From the IMG/VR virus record IMGVR_UViG_2877958089_000002: a stretch of DNA of 31,395 nucleotides, one strand, 5' to 3'. How positions within the stretch are numbered: the stretch's first letter is position 1; each line of letters starts with the position of its first letter. This stretch comes from a virus. Lineage: Duplodnaviria; Heunggongvirae; Uroviricota; Caudoviricetes. This document shows, in pieces, positions 3,448 to 30,936 of the stretch. Position numbers and translations under genes: made by a program. The notes beneath the pieces are model-generated. The model was not told the DNA's origin. It ran no database searches and saw only the letters and a program-made list of their open reading frames with translations.

Positions 3448-3936
3448 ATGAGTCTGTTAAATGACGTTCAGAAATTCATTGAAGCCCATCCGGGGTGTAC
3501 TTCCGGAGACATTGCGGATGCTTTTGCAGGTTACTCACGGCAGCGCGTTCTGCAGTCTGCAAGCAAGTTACGTCAGAGTGGGCGTGTGGCTCACCGTTGT
3601 GAAGGAGATACACGCAGACATTTCCCGCGCCTGACTGAGAGAGCGCAGGAGCCGGAACCACAACCAGTTCGTGAAACCAGACCTGTGCGCAATTTCTATG
3701 TCGGCACTAACGATCCCCGGGTGATTTTGTGCCTGACCCGCCAGGCGGAAGAACTGGAGTCCAGGGGCTTATACCGTCGTGCTGCAACGGTGTGGATGGC
3801 GGCATTCTGTGAAAGCCACTCCCAGCCAGAACGAAACAATTTTCTGGCGCGTCGTGAGCAGTGTTTACGGAAAAGCAGCAAGCGCGCTGTATCGGGTGAT
3901 GAGTGGTATCTGTCAGGGAATTACGTGGGGGCTTAA
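3448..3936 (+). CDS. Putative transcriptional regulator (winged-helix N-terminus; PerC/ANR-like C-terminal region)
   Basis: Frame opens with GTG at 3442; ATG at 3448 has a GGGGG Shine-Dalgarno about 6 nt upstream. C-terminal segment AEELESRGLYRRAATVWMAAF resembles PerC-family regulators. From memory only. Confidence 0.4.
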   Translation: MSLLNDVQKFIEAHPGCTSGDIADAFAGYSRQRVLQSASKLRQSGRVAHRCEGDTRRHFPRLTERAQEPEPQPVRETRPVRNFYVGTNDPRVILCLTRQAEELESRGLYRRAATVWMAAFCESHSQPERNNFLARREQCLRKSSKRAVSGDEWYLSGNYVGA

Positions 3937-4589
3937 TGAGTAATAAATATTGCCAGGCGCTGGTGGAACTACGGAACAAACCAGCCCATGAACTGAAGGA
4001 AGTGGGCGATCAGTGGCGCACGCCGGATAACATTTTCTGGGGAATTAACACTCTGTTTGGCCCGTTTGTTCTGGATCTTTTTACTGACGGTGATAACGCC
4101 AAATGTGCCGCGTATTACACGGCGGAAGACAACGCGCTGGCGCATGACTGGTCAGAACGTCTTGCGGAGCTTAAAGGTGCTGCCTTTGGTAATCCCCCGT
4201 ACAGCCGCGCCAGTCAGCATGAGGGGCAATACATCACCGGCATGCGTTACATCATGAAGCATGCCAGTGCCATGCGTGATAAAGGCGGGCGCTATGTTTT
4301 CCTGATCAAAGCTGCCACCAGCGAAGTGTGGTGGCCGGAAGATGCAGATCATATTGCTTTTATTCGCGGGCGTATTGGTTTTGAACTGCCTGTCTGGTTT
4401 ATCCCGAAAGACGAGAAGCAGGTGCCGACAGGCGCTTTCTTCGCTGGTGCTATTGCTGTTTTCGATAAGACCTGGAAGGGATCGGCAATCAGCTACATCG
4501 GGCGCGATGAACTTGAGGCATGTGGTGAGGCGTTTCTGGCGCAGGTTCGCCAGCAGGCGGAAAAACTGGTCAGGGAGATGGCGGCATGA
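3936..4589 (+). CDS. Phage DNA N6-adenine methyltransferase (Dam-like phage family)
   Basis: NPPY catalytic motif (AAFGNPPYS). TAATG overlap with the upstream gene. ATG at 3936 is residue 12 of the track ORF. Confidence 0.8.
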   Translation: MSNKYCQALVELRNKPAHELKEVGDQWRTPDNIFWGINTLFGPFVLDLFTDGDNAKCAAYYTAEDNALAHDWSERLAELKGAAFGNPPYSRASQHEGQYITGMRYIMKHASAMRDKGGRYVFLIKAATSEVWWPEDADHIAFIRGRIGFELPVWFIPKDEKQVPTGAFFAGAIAVFDKTWKGSAISYIGRDELEACGEAFLAQVRQQAEKLVREMAA

Positions 4590-7124: not shown

Positions 7125-7141
7125 TTTTGTGGAGAAAGTTG

Positions 7142-7507
7142 ATGCGTGATATTCAGATGGTTCTTGAGCGTTGGGGGGCATGGGCGGCGAGTGACAGTTC
7201 AGGAGTAGACTATTCGCCTATAGCTGCTGGGTTTAAGGGACTTCTTCCCTATACAAGCAAAACACGTCAGGCTTGTTCAGATAGTGATGCATTAATTATT
7301 GAAGGTTGTCTTGCTCGTCTAAAGCAAAAAAGGCCAGACGAACATTCGCTTCTTGTTGCCCATTACCTATACGGTATCTCTAAAAGAAAGCTCGCCAAAG
7401 CTCGTAAAAAGGATGAGAAACTAATACGCATTGAGATACAGATGGCTGAGGGGTTTATTGAAGGCTGTCTCTCAATGCTTGATCTTTGTTTGGAAATGGA
7501 CCAATAG
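7142..7507 (+). CDS. Late-gene antiterminator Q (small Q type, as in DLP12-type prophages)
   Basis: MRDIQMVLERWGAWAA... N-terminus and AEGFIEGCLSMLDLCLEMD C-terminus are typical of small Q antiterminators. Frame opens at TTG 7127; ATG 7142 has a GGAGA Shine-Dalgarno 6 nt upstream. Confidence 0.75.
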   Translation: MRDIQMVLERWGAWAASDSSGVDYSPIAAGFKGLLPYTSKTRQACSDSDALIIEGCLARLKQKRPDEHSLLVAHYLYGISKRKLAKARKKDEKLIRIEIQMAEGFIEGCLSMLDLCLEMDQ

Positions 7508-7518
7508 ACTACTAGAAT
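7490..7518 (+). promoter_or_regulatory. Candidate late promoter (pR'-like) overlapping the 3' end of Q
   Basis: TTGGAA (7490-7495), 17-bp spacer, TAGAAT (7513-7518), followed by a hairpin (AACTGCCG...CGGCAGTT, ~7522-7552). Placement mimics lambda pR'. Hexamers read by eye. Confidence 0.3.
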
Positions 7519-7530
7519 AGCAACTGCCGC

Positions 7531-7953
7531 TCAGCTTTGCGGATCGGCAGTTTCTGATGGTGTAATGTTACGCGCAGATGTTTCAAGTATAGATTCCCTT
7601 CCGATTGATACCAAAATTTCGATTGTTCTTGCTTTAGCCTGCATCAATGTTGATTTTATTTCAGGACTTAAGTGGTCAGATCGTAACTGCTTCTCAATCT
7701 CAGCCAAATCACGCTTGCATTTTGCTCTTTTGGCTGCGTCTTCTGGAGATTCGAAACCATGCCTCGAAATGAACCAATTCATGACGTAAGTTAAAGTTGC
7801 CGCAACACCCGGTACTAATGCGTAGGCTACAGTTCGCCACACGCTATTAGGGTCGGTTAAAATCGCGCTAACAAGAACACTTAAAATTGCTCCCCAACCA
7901 CCAGTTGAAAGGGTAGCTTTTCCTGTGCTTAGACCTTTAGTTTGAGAATTCAT
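7531..7953 (-). CDS. Small membrane protein (two predicted TM helices plus charged helical C-terminal tail); third gene of the antisense cassette
   Basis: 140-aa product. Hydrophobic segments GGWGAILSVLVSAIL and WRTVAYALVPGVAATLTYVMNWFI, then a K/R/E-rich helical tail. Start overlaps the upstream gene's stop. AT-rich. Confidence 0.6.
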   Translation of the reverse strand: MNSQTKGLSTGKATLSTGGWGAILSVLVSAILTDPNSVWRTVAYALVPGVAATLTYVMNWFISRHGFESPEDAAKRAKCKRDLAEIEKQLRSDHLSPEIKSTLMQAKARTIEILVSIGRESILETSARNITPSETADPQS

Positions 7954-8219
7954 TTTCGTTTTGAATTCTCCGCAATTGCCTCATCAATGAGGGTTGTTAG
8001 CATTTTTCCCTTTTTACTTGGAACTTTTATTACTAGCGTTTTGGTCACTCCGGAATCTTCATCGTGATATCGGAATTCGAAGACTTTTGTAGGGAATAGT
8101 CGACGCCAAAGCAAGGCTGACGCTGAATAGCAAAAACGACTAAAGGCAGGGATGATCATTATCACCCCTATCCAGAAGATCAGTTGTGCTATCTGCATGT
8201 TTAGTGTCACTTTTGTCAA
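7950..8219 (-). CDS. Small membrane protein (one N-terminal TM helix); second gene of the antisense cassette
   Basis: 89-aa product. TM segment IAQLIFWIGVIMIIPAF. Overlapping stop/start with both neighbours indicates an operon. Confidence 0.55.
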   Translation of the reverse strand: MTKVTLNMQIAQLIFWIGVIMIIPAFSRFCYSASALLWRRLFPTKVFEFRYHDEDSGVTKTLVIKVPSKKGKMLTTLIDEAIAENSKRK

Positions 8220-9085
8220 GCCTCAGCAGGGCGTTTTCGTTTTACTTTGGTTATAGCATACTTGGTTGTGGCATTTCGCGCAGTGAAAGTTTTTATAGTT
8301 TTTAGCTCAACAACAAACAAATCTTCTTTTGTAAAACTGATGATTCCGTTTTGAACTTGGTGTATAAACAACTGATCTTCAAAGGTAACAGCATGCTCTT
8401 CGCCTAAATAATCGATTCTCCAACCCTTTGTACCCTCGAAGTTGATCTGTACGAATCTAACATTGACTTCTTCTACAGACTCTTCTTTTTCAAGTAGTGT
8501 GCCTCTAGGCAGCGGTTTGATCTCTTCGGTTTCACTTCCTTCAAGACGAACGACTTCTTCGCCTTCATCATTCAGCACCTTAAATACTGCTCCTTGTTTG
8601 CCGTCTAATGGTGCACGAACTACATTCACAAGGGCATCACGGACTTCTGGATCTGTTACTAACTTAGCCACTGAGTCATGGCAAACAATTTCTTCCCCTT
8701 CAAGCTCAAGAACAGATTCTTCTGTTCCTGCCCGTTTTGTTACCGAAATTACTTTCTTGCTGCCCAGTTGGCGGATTAGTGATAATGCTGGAGCTCCAAT
8801 AGTAGCCCCGGCTATCCCTGTTAGGCCAATCACTTTTGCTACGTCGACGGCATGAGGAACAAGCTCCATCATCGTATAGGATACGCCGAGTGATCCCGCT
8901 TCAGCTGGATTAGTAACCATTAACTTAACGGTTTGTTGGCCGTCATTAAGTCTTTTATCAGCTGCTGATATTAAATCTGCCATCGAACCTATGGAAATGC
9001 TTAATGTTTTGGCATCAATTTTATGCTGTGCTAATTCATTATCCTCTGCATCGTAGAAGATCTGAAAAGAAGTTGTTTTAGTCAC
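8216..9085 (-). CDS. Hypothetical protein (289 aa), first gene of the antisense cassette; no recognisable family
   Basis: GTG start, with an in-frame stop 60 nt upstream and no ATG between. Gly-rich hydrophobic segment (GLTGIAGATIGAPALSL) and acidic C-terminal half. AT-rich relative to flanks. Confidence 0.55.
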   Translation of the reverse strand: MTKTTSFQIFYDAEDNELAQHKIDAKTLSISIGSMADLISAADKRLNDGQQTVKLMVTNPAEAGSLGVSYTMMELVPHAVDVAKVIGLTGIAGATIGAPALSLIRQLGSKKVISVTKRAGTEESVLELEGEEIVCHDSVAKLVTDPEVRDALVNVVRAPLDGKQGAVFKVLNDEGEEVVRLEGSETEEIKPLPRGTLLEKEESVEEVNVRFVQINFEGTKGWRIDYLGEEHAVTFEDQLFIHQVQNGIISFTKEDLFVVELKTIKTFTARNATTKYAITKVKRKRPAEA

Positions 9086-9206
9086 TCTTTGCTCGCTATG
9101 TCTTGATTTTTTTCCACAAAATACCTTTTTTTGGTGTAAAAAACATTATCGCGGTCCGCAAAAATTGCGTTACTGTGTTAAGAGTGATTACTTCGTCACA
9201 CAGCTT

Positions 9207-9233
9207 AAACCCGCCGTCGAGCGGGTTTTTTTA
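9207..9233 (+). terminator. Intrinsic terminator, plus strand
   Basis: AAACCCGC-cgtcga-GCGGGTTT stem-loop followed by a 7-T run. Lies between the antisense cassette and the small wHTH gene. Confidence 0.6.
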
Positions 9234-9355
9234 TACCTGTAAACCTGGTGCAGTACGGTAAACACGCTGGTGGTCGTGAATACTGACTTTTTATCTTGCT
9301 GGCTTTTTAGACAAGAGTTATTGGTATGTCATGTTAACCATGAAGGTAAAAAGAC

Positions 9356-9550
9356 ATGCTAAAACAGCAAGATATGACAGAAACGGCGAAAGTTGTTTTT
9401 AATGAATTAAACGGCAAACCGGCAACAGTCGGGGAGATAGCACAAAACACATACCTTTCACGCGAACGCTGTCAGTTAATACTGACCCAGCTGGTTATGG
9501 CGGGGCTGGCAGATTACCAGTTCGGCTGTTACAGACGCCTTCAGCAATGA
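9356..9550 (+). CDS. Small putative DNA-binding protein (64 aa) upstream of the methyltransferase
   Basis: ATG with AAGG about 9 nt upstream. Sequence ATVGEIAQNTYLSRERCQLILTQLVMAGLA suggests a helix-turn-helix. Confidence 0.4.
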   Translation: MLKQQDMTETAKVVFNELNGKPATVGEIAQNTYLSRERCQLILTQLVMAGLADYQFGCYRRLQQ

Positions 9551-9699
9551 AGGGCTTTTAATTTGTGAAAATGGGCGGCTGGTGGGTGTTGGTAGCACCT
9601 GCCAGCCATTCGCTCATGCTTACTGGTCACAAGCGAACCATGGCCCACTGCTTTAGCGCAAAAGCAGAGTGAGCCTACCAGAGTTACGCTTACTGATCC

Positions 9700-10752
9700 A
9701 TGAAAAATACTGTAAAAATAAACAGTGTTGATTTAATCAACGCTGATTGCCTGCATTTTATTCAGTCCCTGCCTGATGACTCCATTGATCTGATTGTTAC
9801 CGATCCGCCGTACTTCAAAGTGAAGCCCAACGGCTGGGACAATCAGTGGAAAGGGGACGAAGATTACCTGAAGTGGCTGGACCACTGTCTGGCCCAGTTC
9901 TGGCGGGTACTGAAACCAGCCGGAAGCCTTTACCTGTTCTGTGGACATCGCCTGGCATCTGATATCGAGATCATGATGCGTGAACGTTTCAACGTTCTTA
10001 ACCATATCATCTGGGCGAAGCCGTCCGGACGATGGAACGGGTGTAATAAAGAAAGCCTGCGGGCATATTTCCCCGCTACAGAGCGCGTTCTGTTTGCTGA
10101 ACATTACCAGGGGCCATATCGCGGCAAAAGTGACGATTATGCGGCAAAAGAAAGGGAACTCAAACAGCACATAATGGCACCGCTGATTTCGTATTTCAGG
10201 GATGCTCGTGCCGAACTGGGTATAACGGCAAAACAGATTGCCGAAGCCACTGGTAAGAAAAATATGGTTTCCCACTGGTTTGGTGCCAGTCAGTGGCAGT
10301 TGCCGAATGAGGCTGACTACCGGAAGTTGCAGGCACTGTTTTCCCGTATAGCGGCAGAGAAATTTCAGGAACAACAACTGGAACAACCACACCACCAGCT
10401 GGTGGCATCTTATGATTCACTGAATCGCAAATATTCTGAATTGCTGGATGAGTTTAAAACTCTCCGGCGCTATTTCTCCGTATCAGTTTCCGTGCCTTAT
10501 ACCGACGTCTGGACGTATAAACCCGTTCAGTTCTACCCGGGTAAACATCCGTGTGAGAAGCCTGCGGATATGCTCCGGCAAATAATCAGTGCCAGTAGTC
10601 GACAAGGCGATCTGGTTGCTGATTTCTTTATGGGATCCGGTTCCACAATAAAAGCGGCAATGGCGCTGGGGCGTCGGGCGTTAGGTGTTGAACTTGAGTC
10701 AGAGCGGTTTAATCAGACGGTGAAAGAGGTAAGTGAACTGGTGGGGAAATAA
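9700..10752 (+). CDS. Orphan DNA methyltransferase (N6-adenine/N4-cytosine MTase family, beta class)
   Basis: DPPY motif (LIVTDPPYF) near the N-terminus and AdoMet-binding motif (FFMGSGST) near the C-terminus. No adjacent restriction endonuclease. Confidence 0.85.
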   Translation: MKNTVKINSVDLINADCLHFIQSLPDDSIDLIVTDPPYFKVKPNGWDNQWKGDEDYLKWLDHCLAQFWRVLKPAGSLYLFCGHRLASDIEIMMRERFNVLNHIIWAKPSGRWNGCNKESLRAYFPATERVLFAEHYQGPYRGKSDDYAAKERELKQHIMAPLISYFRDARAELGITAKQIAEATGKKNMVSHWFGASQWQLPNEADYRKLQALFSRIAAEKFQEQQLEQPHHQLVASYDSLNRKYSELLDEFKTLRRYFSVSVSVPYTDVWTYKPVQFYPGKHPCEKPADMLRQIISASSRQGDLVADFFMGSGSTIKAAMALGRRALGVELESERFNQTVKEVSELVGK

Positions 10753-10759
10753 TTCTGGT

Positions 10760-10782
10760 GGCCACGTTGCGTGGCCTTTTTA
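10760..10782 (+). terminator. Intrinsic terminator between the methyltransferase and the holin
   Basis: GGCCAC-gttgc-GTGGCC hairpin followed by TTTTTATTT, 8 nt after the methyltransferase stop. Coordinates anchored on ORF-track codons. Confidence 0.55.
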
Positions 10783-10828
10783 TTTCCAACACAGCACCCG
10801 CAAATATCGCGAGGTGAGAGATGACGAA

Positions 10829-11164
10829 ATGCCTCATAACCCAAATACCTGGCTGGACTGGCTGGAGTTGTTTCAGAGCTGGTGGCGTGGAGATACGCCG
10901 CTGGGCGCAGTGATTATGTCGATTGTTATGGCTGGTTTGCGTATTGCCTATTTTGGTGGTGGTGGCGGCTGGAAACGAAAAACACTCGAAATTTTGCTCT
11001 GTGGCGCTCTGACGCTGACCTTTGCATCCGCTCTTGAGTATGTCGGATGGCCTAAATCGCTTTCTGTTGCCATTGGTGGTGGGGTGGGGCTGATCGGGGT
11101 CGATGCAATTCGTGGGGCTGCAATGCGAGTAATCGGTAATAAGTTTGGTAGTTCTAAGGAGTAA
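10829..11164 (+). CDS. Holin
   Basis: Directly precedes the R-type endolysin. About 111 aa with hydrophobic segments (LGAVIMSIVMAGLRIAYF, LLCGALTLTFASAL, VAIGGGVGLIGV). ATG at 10829 preceded by GAGGTGAGAG; track ORF starts earlier at GTG 10733 inside the methyltransferase 3' end. Confidence 0.6.
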   Translation: MPHNPNTWLDWLELFQSWWRGDTPLGAVIMSIVMAGLRIAYFGGGGGWKRKTLEILLCGALTLTFASALEYVGWPKSLSVAIGGGVGLIGVDAIRGAAMRVIGNKFGSSKE

Positions 11165-11167
11165 TTT

Positions 11168-11644
11168 ATGCAGGTACTAAATTCCCAGCGTAAAGCTTTC
11201 CTTGATATGGTGGCTTGGTCAGAAGGAACGGATAACGGACGACAACCGACACGTAACCACGGTTATGACGTTATTGTCGGTGGTGAACTCTTCACTGATT
11301 ACTCCGATCACCCTCGCAAACTTGTCACGCTAAACCCGAAACTCAAGTCAACAGCCGCCGGACGTTACCAGCTTCTTTCACGCTGGTGGGATGCTTACCG
11401 TAAACAGCTTGGCCTGAAAGATTTTTCTCCAGAAAGCCAGGACGCTGTAGCTCTGCAGCAGATTAAAGAGCGTGGCGCTTTACCGATGATTGACCGTGGC
11501 AATATTCGTCAGGCAATCGACCGTTGCAGCAATATCTGGGCGTCGTTACCTGGTGCAGGTTATGGTCAGTATGAACATAAAATCAGTGACCTGATTGCAC
11601 GGTTTGAAGAGGCTGGTGGGGTGGTAAATGAAGTTGAGCTATAA
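11168..11644 (+). CDS. R: Endolysin, lambda R-type lytic transglycosylase
   Basis: 158-aa product close to lambda R as I recall it (QRKAFLDMVAWSEGTDNGRQPTRNHGYDVIVGGELFTDYSDHPRKLVTLNPKLKST...). Confidence 0.9.
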   Translation: MQVLNSQRKAFLDMVAWSEGTDNGRQPTRNHGYDVIVGGELFTDYSDHPRKLVTLNPKLKSTAAGRYQLLSRWWDAYRKQLGLKDFSPESQDAVALQQIKERGALPMIDRGNIRQAIDRCSNIWASLPGAGYGQYEHKISDLIARFEEAGGVVNEVEL

Positions 11645-12203: not shown

Positions 12204-12554
12204 ATGCCTCCTCGAACCCCAAAAGCCTGCCGCGTTCGCGGCTGCCCCCATACCACCACTGACTCGTCAGGCTATTGCGAAAGGCACAAAAGCGAAGGCT
12301 GGAAGCAATACAAGCCAGGCCAGTCCCGTCATCAGCGCGGTTATGGTTCGAAGTGGGACAGTATCCGCGCGCGCGTCCTGAAGCGTGACAAAGGTTTATG
12401 TCAGTTATGTCTGCGTGCCGGTGTGGTGCGTGAAGCGAAAACCGTTGACCACATCATCCCTAAAGCACATGGCGGCACTGATGTCGACAGTAATCTGCAG
12501 AGTTTGTGCTGGCCGTGTCATAAGGCGAAGACGGCCCGTGAACGGCTGAAGTAA
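12204..12554 (+). CDS. HNH endonuclease (terminase-associated)
   Basis: Cys-rich N-terminus plus HNH core (VDHIIPKAHGGTDVDSNLQSLCWPCHKAKT). Immediately upstream of the terminase genes. Confidence 0.8.
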   Translation: MPPRTPKACRVRGCPHTTTDSSGYCERHKSEGWKQYKPGQSRHQRGYGSKWDSIRARVLKRDKGLCQLCLRAGVVREAKTVDHIIPKAHGGTDVDSNLQSLCWPCHKAKTARERLK

Positions 12555-30665: not shown

Positions 30666-30936
30666 ATTTTACTTCATCTAATTCATAGTTAGCCGGGCGG
30701 GATGCGTCAATGTCTTTATTTCTATTAATATGATAAATATCAAACAATGTTTAATGTCATTATGGCGAATGCTTCTATTCTATTTTTTTGCCGGGTGATA
30801 TTTTTCATTTCTGCTGGATGAGCGTCGTCGCCAGAAGGCCACGTGAGCACAGGATAAGAGAACGAAAAATCAGCAGTCTATGCAGCGACAAATATTGATA
30901 GCCTGAATCAGTATTGATCTGCTGGCAAGAACAGAC

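Follow-up and report, generated by a model that had tools for sequence, protein, structure and literature searches.

M.EcoGII is sold commercially as a reagent, used to footprint chromatin and in proximity mapping. This prophage-borne, beta-class DNA methyltransferase of 349 amino acids (aa) methylates adenine whatever the sequence around it; like M.EcoGI, which is also prophage-borne, it is silent in the lysogen, and clones that express these enzymes constitutively are slow-growing and unstable (PMC5778455). Hia5 and Hin1523 are non-specific adenine methylases that Mu-like prophages encode in the place of mom, and they shield DNA against many restriction enzymes (PMC3299994). We compared with these systems a locus in a viral sequence of 31,395 nucleotides (nt) (Caudoviricetes; IMG/VR record IMGVR_UViG_2877958089_000002), the whole of which is called the window below. 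The locus encodes a 350-aa methyltransferase, preceded by a gene for a 64-aa protein and by a structured leader RNA (Table 1). Because the methyltransferase and its gene neighbourhood were already known, from Shigella phage SfV in 2002 and M.EcoGII in 2018, and are very common, the module as the first-pass annotation of this DNA had noted it is ordinary. The leader RNA appears to be undescribed, and is the only part of the module that is possibly new.

The 350-aa product matches PF01555 (N6_N4_Mtase) across residues 29-341, with its motifs in the beta-class order: DPPY (motif IV) at residue 35, then a central target recognition domain (TRD), then FMGSG (the FxGxG of motif I) at residue 310. 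Over its full length, 282 of 349 residues (81%) are identical to those of M.EcoGII, with two gaps, the reference sequence (GenBank EGT69837.1) being that of Table S1 in Ochiai et al. (PMC11551740); by region, identity is 89% in the catalytic N-terminal part, 77% in the predicted TRD and 79% in the catalytic C-terminal part. Phage 1720a-02, named by the authors of the M.EcoGII study as the carrier of a very similar enzyme (PMC5778455), encodes a protein that is 93% identical to M.EcoGII and 81% identical to the one studied here. Identity is 97.7% to orf48 of SfV, about 89% to the reconstructed ancestor Anc291, and 70% to Anc284 (SUPREM). These comparisons place the protein in the M.EcoGII family, and the beta-class assignment made in the first-pass annotation is borne out.

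M.EcoGII is non-specific on DNA (PMC5778455), and no motif could be discerned on RNA for M.EcoGII, Anc291, or SUPREM (PMC11551740). As the window protein is bracketed by M.EcoGII and Anc291/Anc284, none of them with a discernible motif, the best prediction is that it is sequence-non-specific and would methylate adenines in any context. Tables based on REBASE call homologs at about 93% similarity 'nonspecific', and the same homologs gave no methylation signal in lysogens of Shiga toxin-producing E. coli. Given the identity to M.EcoGII, the motif-free ancestors, and these listings, the earlier statement that the specificity was unknown is out of date. Silence in the lysogen and harm under constitutive expression are reports on M.EcoGII, with which the architecture of the window (three hairpins, no promoter-like site, and no Shine-Dalgarno (SD) sequence) is consistent.

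Between the two genes lies a spacer of 149 nt in the window, and of 142-153 nt in 21 loci/species from Escherichia to Proteus, that is more conserved than the coding sequence on either side of it. A peptide encoded in the spacer was considered and rejected: the candidate open reading frame (ORF), 33 codons from the ATG at 9571, stops after seven codons in Kluyvera owing to indels in the loops, and since it is broken in other species the spacer is regarded as non-coding. The leader, at 9566-9702, is instead a conserved structured RNA consisting of a three-way junction and two further hairpins. Five helices were defined on an alignment of 23 sequences. P1 (9572-9576/9643-9647) closes the three-way junction with P2 (9577-9588/9596-9607) and P3 (9609-9617/9629-9637), while P4 (9648-9654/9661-9667) and P5 (9669-9674/9688-9693) lie 3' of the junction and are followed by UGAUCC and the AUG at 9700. 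The nucleotides of the junction, AAUGGGCG, CAU, UCAC...AAC, and GCCCAC, are near-invariant.

Support for this structure came from pairing, covariation, and homology search. In the raw MAFFT alignment, 78% of cells were paired, compared with 32-47% when the partners were slid, and none of 500 shuffles reached the observed covariation. A covariance model built from the alignment (R1) scored 138 bits in the window. Of 100 sources, 64 gave a match, with scores of 59-140 bits; each locus had exactly one, which always lay on the coding strand and finished at the ATG of the methyltransferase gene. Among 47 distinct, phylogenetically related sequences aligned by fitting to R1 (a procedure that favours the structure; the unfitted alignment pointed in the same direction), (i) 80.6% of cells were paired, against 37-44% in the slid controls; (ii) both sides had changed in 27 of 39 pairs, against a shuffle mean of 17.6; and (iii) the covariation score was 0.244 (shuffles, 0.128; slid controls, 0.04-0.10). 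Neither the count of both-side changes nor the score was reached in any of 500 shuffles. Compensatory changes were present at 10 of the 12 pairs of P2, and the single-sequence fold of the leader had a z-score of -4.0. We also considered a pseudoknot between the G(G/A)UCA of the P3 loop and UGAUC, which was left unsupported: both sides are nearly invariant, which puts the pairing beyond the reach of covariation, and phage N15 has neither sequence. The second of these elements includes a GATC (Dam site) at 9695..9698, directly 5' of the start codon, that is nearly invariant in the family, with rare variants such as the UAAUC of locus L021 (L numbers denote individual loci); the P3 loop (9626..9630) carries G(G/A)UCAC, and N15 lacks this as well as the GATC. 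These features may reflect pairing of the RNA, control by Dam acting on the DNA, or neither.

The leader RNA ranges from E. coli to Proteus and extends to N15, in which the copy is found at the same place (34 bits, E=1e-7) with its stems entirely rewritten and the junction kept as GGGCG...AACC-N-A-R-GCCCAC. A viral scan with the methyltransferase alignment picked up only relatives of at least 96% identity and brought no new diversity. When viral contigs were scanned with a pattern, the core stood directly before a methyltransferase gene in 116 of the 118 loci with room for one, and the two exceptions proved on examination to be methyltransferase deletion remnants, making the linkage of RNA and enzyme exclusive. 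One remnant (L019, 4173..4302) keeps the leader, with the methyltransferase replaced by an unrelated 62-aa ORF; the other (L200, 2141..2272) has an internal deletion that fuses the C-terminal ~65 residues of the methyltransferase after the leader. Two kinds of variant were seen. In a group of divergent viral contigs (L146 and L151-L169) a plain terminator hairpin with a T-run abuts the methyltransferase start, and there is no three-way-junction RNA; in another group (L133, L135-L139, and L177) the spacer is shortened to the 5' third of the RNA. Both could serve as natural controls for the function of the leader.

Searches for a described counterpart were negative. Rfam 15 gave no match in 9551-9699 of the window at E<=10, and none in the leaders of L170, L171, and L023 at E<=1; ARAGORN detected no tRNA in the spacer. 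The anti-sRNAs AsxR and AgvB, and StxS, were considered as identities for the leader and rejected, being either 51-60 nt long and downstream of a moron coding sequence (CDS), or a pR'-tR' transcript. No description of the leader was found in the M.EcoGII papers, in papers on small RNAs (sRNAs) of enterohaemorrhagic E. coli, or in the main texts of two structured-RNA catalogues of the Breaker laboratory (PMC5737381 and PMC11109978), which contain no DNA-methyltransferase-associated prophage motif.

The leader ends at a start codon that lacks the usual ribosome-binding signal. Across 58 distinct 30-nt upstream regions, representing 344 loci, there was not one SD core (AGGA, GGAG, or GAGG at positions -16 to -4), and the median duplex with the anti-SD sequence was -2.7 kcal/mol at methyltransferase starts, compared with values between -7 and -11 at three other genes of the window (holin, lysozyme, and portal). 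The sole purine-rich element, GAG, is located in the 5' strand of P5, and the methyltransferase coding sequence itself starts A-rich and unstructured. The missing SD, the conserved leader, and the reported harm of constitutive expression together suggest that translation is deliberately limited or gated. More specifically, and only tentatively, we propose that the ~135-nt leader might represent an undescribed class of cis-acting RNA for M.EcoGII-type genes, a sensor (a riboswitch for some metabolite connected with methylation, such as S-adenosylmethionine or S-adenosylhomocysteine, or an autoregulatory operator bound or methylated by the enzyme) through which the translation of a toxic enzyme would be gated. 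In a weaker form of this proposal, the leader is simply a structured initiation site of low efficiency.

The 64-aa ORF is a genuine gene and a conserved one, and both it and the methyltransferase ORF are present where the first-pass annotation had placed them. Its product belongs to phrog_331, a family of unknown function, of which 320 homologs were detected, all in Enterobacterales, mostly at >77% identity and with two invariant cysteines; in divergent phages the protein is kept down to ~35% identity. The AlphaFold (AF2) model, a confident one, consists of three successive helices and a beta wing, and was matched by Foldseek to the DNA-binding domains of IclR and MarR, to the N-terminal winged-helix dimerisation domain of O-methyltransferases, and to the RNA-binding winged helices of SelB. 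The modelled protein is a single winged helix, not a restriction-modification (R-M) controller of the XRE type, and any binding to DNA is putative. Among 21 genome loci found through the small protein, 19 have the methyltransferase gene directly downstream of the small gene; among 120 viral loci found through the RNA, the same arrangement holds in 109. In one clade, that of L171, ~20 loci with methyltransferase and RNA have no phrog_331 ORF within 10 kb on either side, and L130 also lacks the small protein. Because it is absent around the methyltransferase and RNA in the L171 clade, the small protein is by these comparisons a frequent accessory of the methyltransferase that is dispensable in some lineages. 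An obligate partnership of winged-helix protein and RNA was accordingly rejected: the L171 clade has the RNA without the protein, and the L146 group has the protein without the RNA.

Transcription of the module appears to be governed by the late regulatory region. Immediately 5' of the first terminator is a conserved block, GCGGTCCGC...TGnTAAGAGTGGTTAC (9150..9206), which takes the form GCGGTCCGC...TGnTAAGAGTG(A/G)TTACTTCG. In 1720a-02 and L012 the block comes straight after Q. It is also conserved in L009, L021, and L178, and loci whose Q alleles are related share it. The Q of SfV belongs to another family and its block region is different, and its identity to the window (~96%) holds from the terminator onward only. 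The block is probably a Q-type-specific late promoter and Q-loading region, from which a late transcript would probably yield a short terminated RNA analogous to lambda 6S or StxS. An isrK-like Rfam match at 9158-9231 is weak (17 bits against a gathering score of 50) and mostly covers the terminator. A consensus scan of the plus strand from 8412 to 11300 returned no promoter-like site. Farther upstream, a promoter-like site at the Q stop codon (7490-7518) was considered as pR' and rejected, as it is not conserved in 1720a-02, L008, L011, or L012 and is probably due to chance.

In addition to the two intrinsic terminators that the first-pass annotation had correctly described as bracketing the genes, there is a third hairpin (9538-9553), which overlaps the small ORF's stop codon and forms a weak terminator-like element directly 5' of the leader RNA. 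Its stem, P0, has compensatory changes among loci. In the L170 group the corresponding hairpin is a strong terminator, and in N15 it carries a terminator annotation. Phages SfV and 1720a-02 and Morganella phage IME1369_02 share a gene order of antiterminator, terminator, small ORF, and methyltransferase, followed by stx in 1720a-02 or by lysis genes. In N15, the order is terminator, methyltransferase, terminator, holin, and lysozyme, with no antiterminator annotated in the stretch shown, and the small ORF precedes an annotated promoter. Two terminator-like hairpins therefore precede the methyltransferase gene and a third follows it, and by analogy expression of the gene would be under Q antitermination. 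Two hairpins before the gene, together with the lack of a promoter-like site, fit the silence of M.EcoGII in lysogens and an expression confined to conditions of Q antitermination.

Considering these data together, we judge it likely, as far as the identity and general role of the enzyme are concerned, that the locus encodes an adenine methylase without sequence specificity, made late in dependence on Q and otherwise tightly silenced, which serves broad anti-restriction and whose translation is set by its leader. In the lysogen, transcription would halt at the tR'-like terminator (9207) and at the second hairpin that it reaches (9538), before the methyltransferase; during lytic growth, only Q-modified RNA polymerase would read through to the gene. 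The enzyme, made late, would heavily methylate progeny phage DNA ahead of packaging, and the methylated DNA would be protected in the next host from many restriction systems that are sensitive to adenine methylation. As constitutive expression harms the cell, output would be restricted further at the post-transcriptional level, the SD-less start and the ~135-nt structured leader setting or gating translation. An anti-restriction role, which the first-pass annotation also thought likely, is the accepted reading for the M.EcoGII family (PMC5778455).

Several observations weigh against parts of this proposal. In principle, specificity could have shifted with the 19% divergence from M.EcoGII, and the M.EcoGII sequence behind the 81% identity was machine-read from a PDF with a few evident reading errors, which do not materially change that figure. 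The consensus promoter scan found no site in 9150-9206, so that the Q-dependence is argued from gene order and homology of the block. The role of the leader in limiting or gating translation is suggested by three features, namely its position, its conservation, and the missing SD; the RNA is, moreover, not essential to the enzyme, because the L146-L169 group has a terminator hairpin in its stead. Finally, a strand test on the leader pairs, in which counts of G.U and A.C were compared, gave 118 and 136 cells, respectively.

Other explanations place the control of the gene in the small protein. The first-pass annotation had called it a controller-like regulator, and in this form the 64-aa protein would be a transcription factor, resembling a C protein, that times or limits transcription of the methyltransferase. 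Its gene is directly upstream of, and co-oriented with, that of the enzyme in most loci, it has the winged-helix fold by which IclR and MarR bind DNA (2g7u, TMq 0.84, rmsd 1.2), and RefSeq labels it a 'TrmB family transcriptional regulator'. We consider this unlikely. Pfam gives only a sub-threshold match to the TrmB winged helix (16.6 vs 25.6 bits) and no helix-turn-helix (HTH) of the XRE type; no endonuclease gene adjoins the module, so there is none to control; and upstream of the small gene there is no convincing operator-like palindrome or C-box, the nearest being an imperfect 19-nt inverted repeat (arms 9284-9302 and 9338-9356, 79% complementary). No promoter-like site lies between the small gene and the methyltransferase, the small protein is missing from the L171 clade and from L130, and in N15 the small ORF is upstream of an annotated promoter. 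The putative recognition helix is also largely hydrophobic (LILTQLVMAGL), and the net charge of the protein is near +1. Alternatively, the small protein might bind the leader RNA and thereby activate or repress translation of the toxic enzyme, as Com does for mom in Mu. The logic would be the same, with a small protein gene, a structured leader without an accessible ribosome-binding site, and a toxic late DNA-modification gene; winged helices can bind RNA hairpins (SelB-SECIS complexes 2uwm and 2pjp are among the Foldseek matches), the small protein has two invariant cysteines, and non-specific adenine methylases replace mom in Mu-like prophages. This possibility, which we regard as quite unlikely, is weakened because protein and RNA are separable: ~20 loci of the L171 clade have the RNA and no phrog_331 ORF within the 10 kb on either side, and the L146-L169 group has the protein without the RNA. 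Com, moreover, is a zinc finger, to which the small protein is unrelated in sequence or fold.

The two remaining alternatives concern the substrate. That the enzyme is a sequence-specific orphan methyltransferase, with a motif of its own and protecting against one or a few restriction systems, would agree with the site specificity of most PF01555 enzymes, and the nearest site-specific relative of the family, M.PflMI (CCANNNNNTGG), is ~27% identical to M.EcoGII. We nevertheless regard it as very unlikely, given the 81% identity to M.EcoGII (77% in the TRD), the position of the protein between non-specific M.EcoGII (81%) and Anc291 (~89%) with the deeper Anc284 also motif-free, and the 'nonspecific' entries for homologs in the REBASE-based tables. 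On the other hand, the enzyme might physiologically act on RNA or on nucleic acid of the host instead of on phage DNA, for instance in host shut-off or the modification of phage transcripts. M.EcoGII methylates RNA, single-stranded DNA, and DNA:RNA hybrids in vitro, and the ancestral forms are more active on RNA; the activity of M.EcoGII on DNA is, however, ~90-fold above that on RNA (V0 11.12 vs 0.12; PMC11551740 Table S3), and a position just before the lysis and packaging genes fits the modification of DNA that is to be packaged. An RNA or host target seems highly improbable, and a non-specific, late-expressed DNA methylase remains the reading that we prefer.

Table 1. Features of the methyltransferase module and related genes in the window (positions count from the first nucleotide of the 31,395-nt stretch)
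Feature	Position	Strand	Evidence or remark
Dam-like phage N6-adenine methyltransferase, early region	3936..4589	+	PF05869 E=4.8e-45; TIGR01712 phage_N6A_met E=1.6e-76
Late antiterminator Q	7127..7507	+	PF06530 Phage_antitermQ E=3.8e-53
Conserved block GCGGTCCGC...TGnTAAGAGTGATTACTTCG	9150..9206	+	Travels with Q type
First intrinsic terminator, tR'-like: 8-bp G+C-rich stem and T7 run	9207..9235 (hairpin 9207-9228)	+	Rho-independent terminator in SfV annotation; conserved across loci
64-aa protein, modelled as a single winged helix (phrog_331)	9356..9550	+	phrog_331 E=5.8e-35; AF2 pLDDT 86
Hairpin P0 and T-rich tract, CCTTCAGCAATGAAGG + GCTTTTAATT	9538..9563 (hairpin 9538-9553)	+	Spans the small-ORF stop codon
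Structured leader RNA of the methyltransferase	9566..9702	+	Covariance model R1; covariation
350-aa beta-class N6-adenine DNA methyltransferase, M.EcoGII family	9700..10752	+	PF01555 E=5.5e-42
Intrinsic terminator at the methyltransferase/lysis boundary: 7-bp stem (6 G-C) and T-run	10760..10786 (hairpin 10760-10776)	+	Terminator in SfV and N15 annotation
Holin S and lysozyme R, opening the lysis cassette	10829..11164 and 11168..11644	+	PF05106 E=5.3e-27; 99% / 96% identity to SfV S / R

By sequence comparison, the window is a prophage with lambdoid early and Mu-like tail regions, and close kin of SfV. The region 9100-10900 is 99.8% identical at the nucleotide level to a prophage of E. coli W12-1, and 95.9% identical to orf47-orf48-S of SfV. 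As the first-pass annotation had noted, the window carries two methyltransferases of unrelated families, the Dam-like ORF of the early region scoring well above the family cut-offs (153.7 bits for PF05869, cut-off 28.1; 255.5 bits for TIGR01712, cut-off 97.05) and the M.EcoGII-family gene belonging to PF01555; the pairing of a Dam-like with an M.EcoGII-like gene recurs in phage 1720a-02 and in L012. The orphan status of the latter gene also stands, its neighbours being Q, the winged-helix gene, holin, and lysozyme. A 116-aa HNH-type ORF (12204..12554), the equivalent of SfV orf53 (HNH endonuclease), is found directly upstream of the genes for the small and large terminase subunits; it belongs with the packaging genes and is no restriction partner of either methyltransferase.

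The placement of the module between Q and the lysis genes was described correctly insofar as it lies between Q and the holin gene; it is not directly beside Q, for three co-oriented ORFs on the minus strand (7531..9085; 140, 89, and 289 aa) intervene between Q and the pR'-like block. If the block is the promoter, this cassette, being inserted between Q and the block, would leave the late transcript uninterrupted. SfV, 1720a-02, and the cdtI phage lack it at this position. For the 289-aa protein there were matches to NCBIfam LAPAL_fam (E=1.3e-59), to phrog_3243 (function unknown), and to PDC-S42 (E=8.2e-33), a candidate defence family of PADLOC, and family searches with the 140-aa and 89-aa proteins gave no match; the cassette looks like a moron or a candidate defence cassette. 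Near the right end of the window, among ORFs of the tail-fibre region, 30838..30916 is a full-length Rfam match to the E. coli sRNA C0299 (RF00119; 112.5 bits).

These findings bear on a common group of genes, as M.EcoGII homologs are present in about three quarters of complete E. coli genomes (4181 of 5426 had a match to the module, at up to eight places per genome). Such genes would be better annotated as 'M.EcoGII-family, predicted non-specific adenine methyltransferase' than as 'site-specific' or 'specificity unknown', and calling the small upstream gene a controller or a TrmB-family regulator would require evidence. The leader offers a testable handle on how a phage avoids harm from a genome-wide adenine methylase before the late stage of lytic growth, and it may explain differences between expression of such enzymes in their native context and from leader-less plasmids.

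Among the known systems, the C proteins of R-M systems resemble the small protein of the window in being encoded by a small gene upstream of a co-oriented methyltransferase gene. C proteins are characterised by an XRE-type HTH, C-box operators, and a linked endonuclease, none of which was found in the window module. The mom gene of Mu is a toxic gene under tight control in several layers, including a small upstream protein and a stem-loop in the mRNA. It differs in that Mom makes another adenine modification, that Com is a zinc finger whereas the window protein is a winged helix, and that the small protein and RNA of the window module are separable. The likeness to Hia5, Hin1523, and Nma1821 (Drozdz et al. 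2012, PMC3299994) is one of function, with no claim of kinship in sequence: these are also the products of late phage genes, modify most adenines, and protect against many restriction enzymes.

Phage N15 (NC_001901) has a counterpart of each part of the module: gp52 is a full-length relative of the methyltransferase (55% identity to M.EcoGII), gp51 is a phrog_331 homolog, and a diverged leader RNA stands in the same order of terminator, RNA, methyltransferase, terminator, holin, and lysozyme. It differs in having an annotated promoter and terminator between gp51 and the RNA, and in helix sequences that are entirely different. In N15 (L304, 2501..2735), the homology of gp52 to M.EcoGII-family enzymes starts at 41387 (locus position 2501). 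The annotated CDS begins 234 nt further downstream, at 41621, and the RefSeq CDS of gp52 appears to be truncated at its N-terminus. From M.EcoGII (2018, PMC5778455) the window enzyme differs by its 19% divergence and by being nearer to Anc291 (~89%); the two share their length (349 and 350 aa), the beta-class order, 81% identity, the status of prophage-borne orphans, and a site in a lambdoid late region. SfV orf47-orf48 (NC_003444/U82619), both labelled 'unknown' in the original record, lie directly downstream of another Q family, without the three-gene minus-strand insertion. The two loci have their 95.9% nucleotide identity across terminator, orf47, orf48, terminator, and S, with protein identities of 95% and 97.7%, and both terminators are annotated in SfV.

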